A stretch of DNA of 34,328 nucleotides from Reclinomonas americana ATCC 50394. Taxonomy: Eukaryota. Below the pieces are notes generated by a model. That model saw nothing but the letters and a program-made list of their open reading frames with translations. It had not been told where the DNA came from and did not search any database. How positions within the stretch are numbered: the stretch's first letter is position 1; every line of letters starts with the position of its first letter. Shown here one piece after another: positions 486 to 34,302 of this stretch. A program made the position numbers and the translations under genes. The DNA is taken from positions 34,432 through 68,759 of the forward strand of contig PS015177.1 of the NCBI GenBank assembly GCA_048213135.1, written 5' to 3'.

Positions 486-1961
486 CTACTGGTAACGATC
501 CACCGACCACGTCATCAACAAGTGTGACAGGAACGCGCGGGCGCGGTCGGGGTCCGCCAGGCAGGCGCAAAGCTCATGGCGCTCTGCCGGCGACATGTGT
601 GACAGATGCTCCACCAGAGCCGCCGACGGAGGGGGCGGCAGCGGCATCGGTGGTGAAGCAGCTGCGGCGTCGTCGACACGACGACGCGAAGTTGGCGGCG
701 ACTCGTCGTCCACATCATCCGCGTCCATGGACGACGGCGACGCTCGCTTGTTGTTGGCGCGCCGCGCCGCACTGTCGGTCTGCGGCTTGGGCGGGCGCTT
801 NNNNNNNNNNNNNNNNNNNNNNNNNNNNNNNNNNNNNNNNNNNNNNNNNNNNNNNNNNNNNNNNNNNNNNNNNNNNNNNNNNNNNNNNNNNNNNNNNNNN
901 NNNNNNNNNNNNNNNNNNNNNNNNNNNNNNNNNNNNNNNNNNNNNNNNNNNNNNNNNNNNNNNNNNNNNNNNNNNNNNNNNNNNNNNNNNNNNNNNNNNN
1001 NNNNNNNNNNNNNNNNNNNNNNNNNNNNNNNNNNNNNNNNNNNNNNNNNNNNCTTGGCCTTGACCACAAAGGGCGACGAGTGAATGACCAGCATGCGGTG
1101 CGCGGGGTTCGCCGCATCGGCCACTGTCAGCTCCAGACGGAAGCGCGAGCCCTTGTGTCGCGACGACTGCGTGCGCAGCGTCAGCGCGCTCTCGCCCTCG
1201 TACACCGACTCGCCACTGCATCGACTCAGCGCAAACGACACGTCGCCCTGCAGCGGCGGTGGCTCGCACACCACATCAGCGCCCGTCTCCGTAATCAGCG
1301 ACACATGCACCACCGCTGAGTGTCCGCCAGGCAGCAAACTGTTCAGCCCATCCACGCGCAACAGCAGGTGCGACGAGTATGGCGCCGAGTACTGCACATC
1401 GGCACTGCAACAACGTCCGTCCATGAGCGTCCACAATGCTATTAATGCACACGCCAGACAACAACAACAACATACGCAACAGATCAGTGGAGAACTCGGT
1501 GCGCTGCTGGCGAGCCGACTTGAAGAGCACCTGGAACGGCACCGTGTAGCCTGCATGCACAAAGGAGCGTGTGAGCAACACAGTCTATTTCAGGTCGAAC
1601 ATTGTCGCGCGTCAAAGCAAAACTCACCGCCCACTAGCGTCCAGCTGCCCACCTCTCGCACAGCGGCTGGTGGTGGTGGCGGCGGTGGTGGTGGCGGTAG
1701 TGGTGGCGCACACCACACAGCAGTCGACGAGGACAAGGCGGCAGGCGGCAAACACGTGGTGGGCGGTTGCGAGGGCAAAGGCGGTGGTGGTGGCATCGAC
1801 ATCGGCAGCGCCACTAGCGGAGGCGACGCGCTTGTGAAGCCATCATCATCGTCACCAAAGCCGCCGCCAAAGCCAAAGTCGTCGTGTGGTGGTGGCGGTT
1901 GGTGATGGTGATGGTGCATGTTGGCCCACCAGCCGCCGCTGTCCAGGTCGTCGCTGTTCAT
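486..1961 (-). CDS. Putative DNA-binding protein with a CudA/p53-like Ig-fold-type domain and a His/Pro-rich N-terminus (at least 3 exons; N-gap inside)
   Basis: ATG at 1961 (MNSDDLDSGGWWANMHHHHHQPPPP...). Introns 1551-1627 (g|GTGAG..CAG) and 1405-1480 (t|GTTGCGT..CAG) join ...SWTLVGGYTVPFQVLFKS...TDLADVQYSAPY. The domain ends LTLRTQSSRHKGSRFRLELTV...VIHSSPFVVKAK, followed by basic KRPPK/KRASP. Stop is TAG at 486-488. The family call rests on remembered motif resemblance only. Confidence 0.6.
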
Positions 1962-2321
1962 CACCGAGGTGCCGCGAGAGGGTGTGTGTGTGTGTGTGTG
2001 TATAAGAAGGTGGGGTATGAATGGGTATGTGTGTCCGACTGTGGCCCGAGCTCTCCGATGCCGAAGGAAAAAATACCTGTCCACTCGTCGGGTGGATGGC
2101 GGATTCAGANNNNNNNNNNNNNNNNNNNNNNNNNNNNNNNNAGAGAGAGAGAGAGAGAGTTTCCGAGTCCTCACAAACAAGTCAAGCGCGGCGACAGCAT
2201 GTTGGAGGCGTCTGTCAGTGGTGGTCGGGATTGCGATGCAGCGAGTGCAGGAAACGCATCGACAAGGCGCCACCCGCACCGTAACCCTGCATGCGCATTC
2301 CGAACAAATCAGCTCGACACA

Positions 2322-32800: not shown

Positions 32801-34302
32801 CGAGCCGACTGCTCACCGTCATCAGTGTTCTTCTGTTCCCGAGCCGCAAACAATTCGCGTTCCAGCTGACGAATGCGATCCGCCTGCTGATCGGGTGGTG
32901 CGCGGGTGGCGGTGGAACTGTTCGTTGCCGCGGCCGCACGCAGCTGCTCGACTTGTGTGGCGAGTGCATCGCGCTGCTGCTTCATGTTGTCCAGCTCCTG
33001 CAACGTCTTCTCAAACATCTTCGTCTGCAACACTTGTCCGATGCGCGGATCGTTGCCACCGGCAGGCGTTGGCACACCGCCACCGCGAGTGACTGTGTTG
33101 GAGACTGAGCCCGTAGGCTCCGCGGCATCCGCAGCAGCCGAAGCACCAGCTGGCCTGGCCTCTGTGTGCGTACATGCGGCGATGAGATACGGTGTTGCAC
33201 AGATCGCTGTAACATGCGCGCAGCAAAGCATACACGCACCTGCGATTCCAGCAACACTGGCCACCACCGCGTCGTTGAGGAAGGAGCCCTCACCGCAACC
33301 GGTGAGAACCACGATTTCCCTGCGGTGCTTCGTGTTGACAAACACGAGGCCGTGAGAGTGTCGCGGGTCCGGCACCGCGCCCGTCACTTTCGGCCACTCC
33401 CACTTGTGCTTTGTCACGTTCAGAATCGCCACCTCGCTGTTGCACTCTTGTGCCTCGTTGGCGCCTCCAAACAGCATGAGCTGTGAGTCCGAGATGCGCA
33501 CAATGCGATGCGAGTTGCGCGGTGACGGAGGGATGCCGTCGAGTCGCAGCTCGCTCCACGTCATGGTCTTGAGGTCAAGGCGGAAGACGTCGTTGAAGTG
33601 TGTCTTCAGGTCGGTGCCTCCCACAATGTACAGCGAATCGCCAATCACCGCAGCGTCGTGATTGCCTCGCGGCGCCGGCGGCTGTCCGATGACTTCAGGC
33701 GATCCCCATCTGCACATGCCTGTGCGGAGGAGCGTGTGAGCGCGCACAGAGAGAAAGAGAAAGAGAGAGAGTAAGTGCCAGAGCGTGCTACGCAACGGAC
33801 GTCAAAGACGTGCACATCGTTGTTAAAGCTGGCGTCGAAGCCGCCAAAAAGCACCACAGTANNNNNNNNNNNNNNNNNNNNNNNNNNNNNNNNNNNNNNN
33901 NNNNNNNNNNNNNNNNNNNNNNNNNNNNNNNNNNNNNNNNNNNNNNNNNNNNNNNNNNNNNNNNNNNNNNNNNNNNNNNGCGTTGTGCCTGTCGCCGGCC
34001 ACGGAGCACGAGTGCCATCCGCGGGCCGTTGGTGCATGGCCATACCATCCACTCTGACTCCATCGGAACGTTTCGCATGAGAAGCACCACCACATCAGCA
34101 TCGCGCGCACAGCACAGATCGCGACGGTCACACACACACACACACGTGCCTGTGTCGAGGAAGAAGATATCGTCGAACCACATGCTGCCATTGCGCCCAC
34201 CAAACAGGAAGAAGCGACCATCGGGCAGTGCCGACATGGTGTGCCAGCCACGACCTGCTGGCTTGTCACCCTCGGCCTCGACGCATCGCCATTCCAGATC
34301 CT
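29877..34302 (-). CDS. Kelch-repeat / coiled-coil / CAP-Gly protein, 5' end beyond the window
   Basis: Kelch repeats PAGRGWHTM..FFLFGGRNG, PTARGWHS..VVLFGGFD, PAPRGNHDA..LYIVGGTD, PSPRNSHR..LMLFGGAN and PDPRHSHG. Coiled coil LQELDNMKQQRDALATQVEQL. Intronless CAP-Gly [45 protein letters not shown]. Ser/Pro/Arg tail exons run to TAG at 29877. Three N-gaps lie inside the gene, so continuity is inferred. Confidence 0.8.
30543..31155. repeat. Two ~120-nt (CA)n microsatellite tracts flanking a gap, inside an intron (30483-31155) of the Kelch/CAP-Gly gene
   Basis: Perfect CA runs at about 30543-30661 and 31035-31155. The intron donor cg|GTGTGT is the start of the (GT)n run on the - strand. Confidence 0.95.

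Follow-up and report, generated by a model that had tools for sequence, protein, structure and literature searches.

The stretch of DNA analysed here (the window) comprises 34,328 bases of Reclinomonas americana ATCC 50394 (contig PS015177.1, positions 34,432 to 68,759 of the forward strand), has a GC content of about 58%, includes eight runs of N and is dense with short introns. Predicted introns in the window use two classes of donor (5' splice site), an ordinary, loosely specified class and a class that begins with the near-invariant word GTTGCGT (the heptamer class), and the class used is coupled to the last base of the upstream exon (position -1), a coupling that was confirmed as real within the window. 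In a filtered set of 68 introns, heptamer-class donors followed A, C or T in 21 cases and G in 1, and ordinary donors did so in 7 and 36 cases, respectively (Fisher p = 3.6e-10); counted by exon end, the heptamer class was used by 21 of 29 non-G ends versus 1 of 39 G ends. A reading of the same DNA made from the letters alone (the sequence-only reading) had claimed that GTTGY donors nearly always follow A, C or T and had suggested a contingency test of the last exon base against donor type; carried out on predicted introns, that test bears the claim out.

Introns were called with a dynamic-programming gene finder written for this analysis, with scoring by codon log-odds, splice terms and a length prior; the coding signature in the window was a rarity of codons ending in A (3-11% in seed exons). 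Introns were limited to GT..AG and 40-250 nt, acceptors were scored with a matrix and branch sites with a CTVAY term, and the donor term was a two-component mixture over intron positions +3 to +9 from which exon bases were excluded. Parameters were retrained from clean seed exons, and earlier over-merging runs with GTGTGT drift were discarded. The final run called 96 introns, and the mixture separated two donor types unaided, the first with G or A at +3, a base other than G at +4, G at +5 and T at +6, and the second with T-G-C-G-T at +3 to +7 and a share of 0.30. Rows were dropped for a shadow gene antisense to a clear coiled-coil/CAP-Gly gene, for two conflicting models at 12.9-13.8 kb and for an intron at 31329 (minus strand) that was false by Pfam continuity, leaving 88 introns after all drops; these were reduced to the 68 by keeping introns with a length of at least 48, a YAG acceptor, a donor score of at least 0 and no other in-phase donor scoring within 1 nat. 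Class comparisons of position -1 and of intron-side bases used 61 ordinary and 23 heptamer-class introns (84). All junctions are those of the predicted gene models of this analysis, in one 34-kb window.

The association was also present in the raw set of 96 introns (GTT donors, 25 non-G and 3 G; GTV donors, 18 non-G and 50 G; Fisher p = 1.2e-8), with a first-order donor model (98 introns; heptamer/GTT, 29 non-G and 3 G; ordinary/GTV, 19 and 47; p = 4.4e-9) and with a minimum intron length of 48 (93 introns; heptamer/GTT, 25 non-G and 4 G; ordinary/GTV, 13 and 51; p = 1.9e-9). GTT donors after G include GTTAGT and GTTTGT, and because both keep G-T at +5/+6 they belong to the ordinary class with T at +3. 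The one exception that had been named beforehand, GTTGCGT after G at 10468 (minus strand), was recovered as the sole heptamer donor after G, as were the three ordinary donors named after non-G exon ends (GTGAGT after A at 6017, plus strand; GTACGT after T at 9935, minus strand; GTGCGT after C at 10319, minus strand), and both GTTTCGT donors (21813, plus strand; 9487, minus strand) followed a base other than G. The estimate of about 70 G-ending exons with ordinary donors was right in that ordinary donors predominate after G and too high in number, the count being about 50; the statement that just three ordinary donors follow a non-G base did not stand, since 7 to 18 were found, many of them doubtful calls of this analysis.

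The introns with heptamer-class donors, each with the exon base that precedes the donor, are as follows.

1405..1480, minus strand: intron of 76 nt, phase 2, donor GTTGCGTAT after T, from the gene finder
3223..3312, plus strand: intron of 90 nt, donor GTTGCGTGC after A, in frame without a stop, from codon evidence; kept as exon by the gene finder
8068..8132, minus strand: intron of 65 nt, phase 0, donor GTTGTGTTT after A, in an ankyrin repeat, with the register set by eye against the repeat consensus
8888..8959, minus strand: intron of 72 nt, phase 0, donor GTTGCGCAC after C, from the gene finder
9260..9318, minus strand: intron of 59 nt, phase 2, donor GTTGCGTCC after T, from the gene finder, with an Ank profile downstream
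9418..9487, minus strand: intron of 70 nt, phase 2, donor GTTTCGTGT after T, from the gene finder
9716..9773, minus strand: intron of 58 nt, phase 2, donor GTTGCGTAC after T, from the gene finder
10049..10115, minus strand: intron of 67 nt, phase 2, donor GTTGCGTGC after A, from the gene finder
10399..10468, minus strand: intron with donor GTTGCGTGC after the G of a Met codon, the only heptamer donor after G, from the gene finder
12392..12462, minus strand: intron of 71 nt, phase 1, donor GTTGCGTCA after T, splitting a Phe codon in a CAP-Gly domain
17041..17118, plus strand: intron of 78 nt, phase 0, donor GTTGCGTTT after T, from the gene finder
17752..17808, plus strand: intron of 57 nt, phase 1, donor GTTGCGTGC after A, from the gene finder
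17900..17975, plus strand: intron of 76 nt, phase 2, donor GTTGCGTGA after T, also picked without a donor model
20125..20194, plus strand: intron of 70 nt, phase 1, donor GTTGCGTCA after A, from the gene finder
21599..21672, plus strand: intron of 74 nt, phase 0, donor GTTGCGTTT after T, from the gene finder
21813..21893, plus strand: intron of 81 nt, phase 2, donor GTTTCGTGG after C, from the gene finder
22819..22893, plus strand: intron of 75 nt, phase 1, donor GTTGCGTTG after C, from the gene finder
23871..23937, plus strand: intron of 67 nt, phase 2, donor GTTGCGTGT after C, in a PAS domain, the upstream exon matching PAS profile positions 6-58
24265..24334, plus strand: intron of 70 nt, phase 0, donor GTTGCGTAG after T, also picked without a donor model
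25475..25548, plus strand: intron of 74 nt, phase 0, donor GTTGCGTTT after A, in a cyclase catalytic domain
28833..28917, plus strand: intron of 85 nt, phase 1, donor GTTGCGTCC after T, at a CAP-Gly position equal to that of 12392-12462
31521..31581, minus strand: intron of 61 nt, phase 0, donor GTTGCGATC after C, from the gene finder
33720..33796, minus strand: intron of 77 nt, phase 1, donor GTTGCGTAG after C, between Kelch repeats, from the gene finder

For the intron at 3223..3312 (plus strand), codons ending in A number 8 of 30, versus 6 of 145 in the flanking exons (p = 4.5e-4), in agreement with the earlier proposal of the heptamer at 3223 as an intron start. Retention of this intron would add 30 residues to a secreted-looking protein.

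The word itself is over-represented. GTTGCGT occurs 24 times on the two strands of the window (preceded by A in 5 cases, T in 10, C in 7 and G in 2), versus 8.6 +/- 3.0 in dinucleotide-preserving shuffles, of which 0 of 100 reached 24, and 17 of the 24 copies are frame-consistent coding donors in 7 predicted gene models. Copies in other settings include the following.

16584, plus strand: GTTGCGT as the candidate start of a 47-nt intron in a likely leader, short and uncertain
21115..21121, plus strand: GTTGCGT that is not a donor, inside the intron 21094-21162 (donor GTATGAGTT after G)
27741..27747, plus strand: GTTGCGT after G that is not a donor and reads as coding (Leu-Arg-Val)
29917..29993, minus strand: intron-like stretch of 77 nt with GTTGCGTGC after C, CTTAC and CACAG, from direct reading, outside the scored coding regions

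No coding signal was found around 29917..29993. Use of the copy at 21115 as a coding donor was ruled out by an in-frame TGA at 21097-21099; lying 21 nt into the intron, this copy might act as a decoy or be an alternative but unproductive donor. The copies at 6327 (plus strand), which reads as coding sequence, and at 10337 (plus strand), which is antisense to a gene, were rejected as donors.

What each class requires at the exon end was read from base counts. In ordinary donors G occupies -1 in 47 of 61 cases versus 28.3% before exonic GTV (p = 4e-15), and the real constraint lies with this class, which needs G at the exon end. In the heptamer class the last exon base is T in 10, A in 6, C in 6 and G in 1 of 23 cases. 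Because G is equally rare before background GTTG (12.8% of 345 non-donor sites in the window and 12.0% of 117 exonic sense sites; binomial p = 0.19 for 1 G among 23), the heptamer class takes no account of the exon end and shows no avoidance of G; before other GT sites in the window, G is found in 22-28%. A depletion of G computed from codon-position frequencies (1 versus 5.3 expected, p = 0.013) was withdrawn, its background being wrong.

On the intron side, the heptamer class is near-invariant at +3 to +7 (T 23, G 21, C 21, G 23 and T 21 of 23), and its positions from +8 on, like -1, resemble background. Position +5 holds C in 21 cases, T in 2 and no other base, the pattern expected for pairing opposite a G. 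At the position that aligns with it in ordinary donors with G at -1, which is +4, the bases are A 20, T 15, C 11 and G 1 (n = 47), so that C occupies the aligned position in 21 of 23 versus 11 of 47 donors (p = 6e-8). No shifted copy of the ordinary-class preferences was found at +8/+9 or at -1/-2 of the heptamer class, which is not the ordinary class displaced by one base.

These counts sort the parts of an earlier interpretation, by which recognition would require a G at a fixed distance from a TGCGT core, supplied by the exon or else by the first base of the intron. Two donor classes exist, and an exon-end G and a rigid intron word substitute for each other; this much of it holds. The heptamer G-K-T-G-C-G-T said to be shared by both classes fits the GTGCGT subset only, as most ordinary donors (GTGAGT, GTGTGT, GTAAGT) lack the TGCGT core, and the G at a fixed distance is, in the heptamer class, merely the obligatory first intron base. 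Dependency between G at -1 and G at +5 is the usual form of compensation between the exon side and the intron side of a donor; a departure from that plain form had been claimed and is seen here, the rescuing word being no improved copy of the ordinary consensus.

The coding sequence offers a candidate reason for the choice of class. Placing G at -1 would change the amino acid at 17 of 22 heptamer-class donors that follow a non-G base, which fits coding constraint on -1 as a determinant of class, in the sense of a tendency and not a rule. An example of such a constraint is a conserved aromatic residue of the CAP-Gly domain, whose codon is split as T/TY.

Several junctions could be checked against Pfam profile coordinates, with matches to CAP-Gly domains in three separate genes within about 20 kb.

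12291-12607, minus strand: CAP-Gly domain, profile match
28361-29033, plus strand: CAP-Gly domain, profile match
31221-31520, minus strand: CAP-Gly domain, profile match

At the donors at 12462 (minus strand) and 28833 (plus strand), CAP_GLY profile positions 1-36 run to the last upstream residue and positions 38-65 begin at downstream residue 1, and the missing profile position is at both junctions the split codon T/TY (Phe). The third copy (31221-31520) carries CAP_GLY 1-64 uninterrupted and has no intron at that place. At the 25475 junction (GTTGCGT after A), Guanylate_cyc position 92 lies three residues before the exon end and position 98 at residue 3 downstream, leaving 5 residues for the 5 positions 93-97; two ordinary junctions in the cyclase domain are fixed in the same way, between profile positions 57 and 59 and between 127 and 129. 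In the exon after 9318 (minus strand), Ank profile positions 8-30 match from residue 2, with which the junction is compatible. Three heptamer junctions are thus held in place by Pfam coordinates and a fourth is compatible with them; Kelch and PAS profile coordinates were too loose for the junctions at 33796 (minus strand), 23871 (plus strand) and 24265 (plus strand). The two CAP-Gly introns are alignable paralogues in which the heptamer is identical and much of the interior differs, and because they can be aligned they count as one event.

Away from the donor the two classes are alike. The CTVAY branch motif is present in 43 of 61 ordinary and 19 of 23 heptamer-class introns, at a median distance to the 3' end of 20 and 18 nt, respectively, and a CAG acceptor in 54 of 61 and 22 of 23; the GT and AG intron ends themselves were imposed by the gene finder. 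Median length is 68 nt in the ordinary and 71 nt in the heptamer class, and GC is 0.537 and 0.538. Because branch site, acceptor, length and GC are alike, both classes look like U2-type introns that differ at the donor only. A strongly diverged and expanded minor-spliceosome (U12-type) population, as in Physarum, would also present a long invariant donor word, indifference to the exon end and a share of about a quarter of introns, and Physarum has 20,899 putative U12-type introns, with a small nuclear RNA (snRNA) that co-evolved with the motif (10.1101/2020.10.12.336362). None of the 23 heptamer-class donors matches the U12 donor [GA]TATCCTT, of which the window holds one copy, antisense to a gene, and the U12 branch word TCCTT[AG]AC does not occur on either strand of the window. 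Since these words are absent and branch motif, branch distance and acceptor are those of ordinary introns, the U12-type reading was rejected and is, in our estimation, very improbable.

An introner (transposon-borne) origin was likewise rejected: comparison of 84 intron interiors gave one reciprocal 14-nt match and no families, and in the heptamer class no second copy of the exon-end k-mer stands at the 3' end, so that there are no target-site-like duplications. Pairing of the heptamer within its own intron was rejected as well, ACGCA being present in 2 of 17 versus 9 of 61 introns, with equal duplex energies.

Pairing with U1 was computed as ViennaRNA duplex energies, the canonical 11-base U1 arm being taken from Tan et al. 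2016 (PMC4856993). Ordinary donors with G at -1 had a mean of -7.97 kcal/mol, all 47 of 47 in the canonical register, and exonic GT controls a mean of -2.77 kcal/mol (n = 1,292). GTTGCGT donors averaged -1.19 kcal/mol (n = 17), a weaker pairing than that of the controls; their +1G paired with U1 nt 9 in 0 of 17 cases, and no shifted or bulged register was stable with the canonical arm. In a scan of 4,096 candidate arms with A7-C8 fixed, the canonical arm ranked 5th for separating ordinary donors from controls, which suggests that the main U1 of this organism may be canonical-like, and the best arms for the heptamer class contained ACGCAAC.

These energies bear directly on the possibility that GUUGCGU is read by canonical U1 in a one-base shifted register, or in a register in which the U at +2/+3 is bulged out, intron G+1 then standing in for exon G-1. 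The skeletons G-G-T-G-C-G-T and G-T-T-G-C-G-T do align with a one-base offset, coupling to an absent -1G is what such a register predicts, and shifted and bulge registers are established for human U1 (PMC4856993; PMC9311317). Besides the weak pairing, however, the canonical arm would favour A at +5, yet C is found in 21 of 23; A, the partner of U1 nt 10, is not preferred at -1; and +8/+9 carry no shifted copy of the ordinary +7/+8 preferences. The modelled energies weigh against a plain shifted register of the canonical arm, and we regard this explanation as unlikely.

Alternatively, the reading of GUUGCGU might fall to a protein, or to U6 or U5 contacts at a later step, independently of the pairing of U1 to the exon. 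The failure of the canonical arm to pair with the heptamer is in keeping with this, as is the lack of constraint on the exon and beyond +7, and two broad donor classes dependent on the U1-associated LUC7 proteins are described for animals and plants (10.1101/2022.12.07.519539). Against it, a +5 restricted to C or T and seven contiguous fixed bases resemble an RNA duplex more than a protein site. To our knowledge there is no protein with specificity for GUUGCGU, which also counts against this reading, and we consider it quite unlikely.

The explanation that we tentatively prefer, with a confidence somewhat short of even, is compensation through a distinct pairing mode, in which the heptamer would be read by a diverged or second U1-type arm. 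Ordinary donors, with their loose intron side (GT, then G or A, a base other than G, G and T), would depend on the exon-end G because the intron side alone pairs weakly with a canonical-type U1 arm. Where the exon cannot supply that G, the intron would start with near-invariant GUUGCGU and need no particular exon base. Because GUUGCGU cannot pair with the canonical arm, we infer a different reader, presumably an RNA arm containing ACGCA, of which a diverged U1 5' arm or a second U1-type snRNA would be the likeliest forms. Machinery downstream of donor recognition, the U2-type branch site and acceptor, would be common to both classes. The protein sequence would then decide, as we likewise infer, between a loose donor that suffices where G is permitted and a rigid word that alone works elsewhere. 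The narrower proposal that a second U1-type snRNA or a re-tuned U1 arm complementary to GUUGCGU co-evolved with about a quarter of introns is possible but doubtful. Rfam models at gathering thresholds gave no RNA gene in the window, and hence no snRNA there.

A number of points weigh against the distinct pairing mode. The reader RNA is a prediction from the donor words. The energies are nearest-neighbour values that take no account of pseudouridine or of U1 proteins, both of which stabilise weak donors in other organisms. An ACGCACC-type arm, which is hypothetical, would pair with UGCGU and serve both classes moderately in silico; because one such arm would serve both, a diverged arm and a second snRNA are not separable on these data, and with a diverged ACGCACC arm the one-base shift would return. 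At 5 of 22 non-G ends, G could be introduced synonymously, and coding constraint is thus not the whole story. In addition, 17 of 22 filtered heptamer-class donors sit in two genes, and a run without a splice-signal model, which sets boundaries loosely, showed no significant coupling (64 introns; GTT, 10 non-G and 1 G; GTV, 36 and 17; p = 0.16).

The result of that run would also suit the view that the two classes are an artefact of predicted gene models or a local quirk of a few genes or of recently copied introns, as would the several intron calls of this analysis that were wrong or ambiguous and the reduction of the two CAP-Gly introns to one event. Opposed to this are a donor model blind to exon bases, the excess of the heptamer over shuffled sequence and its place at frame-consistent donors in 7 gene models, the three junctions fixed by Pfam coordinates, and the dissimilar intron interiors without target-site-like duplications. 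An origin of the pattern in artefact or local copying therefore seems to us extremely improbable.

Shifted-register recognition of atypical human 5' splice sites by U1 was reportedly described by Roca and Krainer in 2009. Human sites read in shifted or bulge registers resemble the heptamer class in that cleavage still occurs at a GU, no G is needed at the exon end and, apart from the GU, the donor seems displaced by one base relative to the consensus. They differ from it in that they gain complementarity to the canonical U1 arm, whereas the heptamer word has no stable pairing in any register, and in that they are exceptions, described as atypical by Tan et al. 2016 (PMC4856993), whereas about a quarter of introns here use one fixed word. 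The donor classes defined by LUC7 share with the window the offsetting of exon-side weakness by intron-side strength, and the reverse (10.1101/2022.12.07.519539); both there and in the -1G/+5G system the arrangement differs from the present one, in which the strong intron side is another seven-base word altogether, one that has a fixed C and an additional T. The U12-type class of Physarum polycephalum (10.1101/2020.10.12.336362) is similar in that a second class of introns has a large share and a long, fixed word at the donor. There the snRNA changed together with the motif, and the authors call the pair of U12 and branch motif the first true instance of such coevolution; here, by contrast, there is no U12 donor or branch motif and the 3' signals are common to ordinary introns. 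Human variant U1 snRNAs (PMC3561869, PMC10870369) provide more than one U1-type RNA with a differing 5' arm, the kind of reader predicted here; in the abstracts of these papers their role in splicing is described as untested until recently, and no intron class is tied there to a variant arm. A literature search for the GTTGCGT heptamer, which did not cover supplements, returned primers and unrelated sequences only and no such donor word, and none of the papers listed in a search on shifted registers and splice sites describes such a donor class.

The three ordinary donors that follow a non-G base and had been named beforehand belong to the following introns.

6017..6073, plus strand: intron with ordinary donor GTGAGTATC after A, from the gene finder, in a poorly resolved gene region
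9877..9935, minus strand: intron with ordinary donor GTACGTCTC after T, from the gene finder, with no in-phase alternative donor
10249..10319, minus strand: intron with ordinary donor GTGCGTCTC after C, from the gene finder, the best alternative donor being 7.2 nats worse

The first lies in a leucine-rich-repeat gene (4332-6260, plus strand) in which two frames are open over 5756-6055 and weak donors compete.

Two intron-rich genes were modelled as follows.

16963..26031, plus strand: PAS/cyclase gene of about 2,040 codons with 42 predicted introns of 53-141 nt
7269..11446, minus strand: ankyrin-repeat gene with 18-19 predicted introns, 7 of them heptamer-class

Ten of the 42 predicted introns of the PAS/cyclase gene have GTTGCGT donors. 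This gene shows transmembrane-like exons, PAS domains and a class III cyclase catalytic domain, and the leader upstream of it (16400-16960) may hold more introns. In a search of 1.84 billion cluster representatives, the Kelch exon matched many Kelch proteins with a best identity of 42%, and an ESM Atlas search with it gave generic Kelch clusters only. An ankyrin exon and a membrane exon used as queries against longer proteins in a 15-billion-sequence collection found no close protein, and metagenome scans with the Kelch exon and with a degenerate CAP-Gly-plus-heptamer DNA pattern gave no match. The source lineage would seem to lack a sequenced relative. Elsewhere in the window, 13823-15362 is of low complexity and rich in purines (GAG, AGGAGAAGAAGA, AG and GA arrays), is strongly skewed in GC and AT and has no predicted gene. 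Perfect (CA)n arrays, each of about 60 copies, lie at 30543-30661 and 31035-31155; the minus-strand CAP-Gly frame is immediately followed by the second of these, and read-through into it would give a Cys-Val repeat.

It has long been asked how a single U1 arm can read donors of such diversity, and the noncanonical registers demonstrated to date are those of atypical human sites. In the window, roughly one in four introns uses a fixed word that a canonical arm is not expected to read, and does so precisely where a G cannot come from the exon. For annotation, about a quarter of the exon ends of this organism will be placed wrongly by gene finders that rely on one donor matrix. If a second or re-tuned U1-type arm complementary to GUUGCGU does exist, the organism would have a major spliceosome with two parallel modes of donor reading, set by whether the exon can end in G; and if the use of the fixed word holds genome-wide, this would be a natural case of a donor signal and an snRNA changing together in the major spliceosome.

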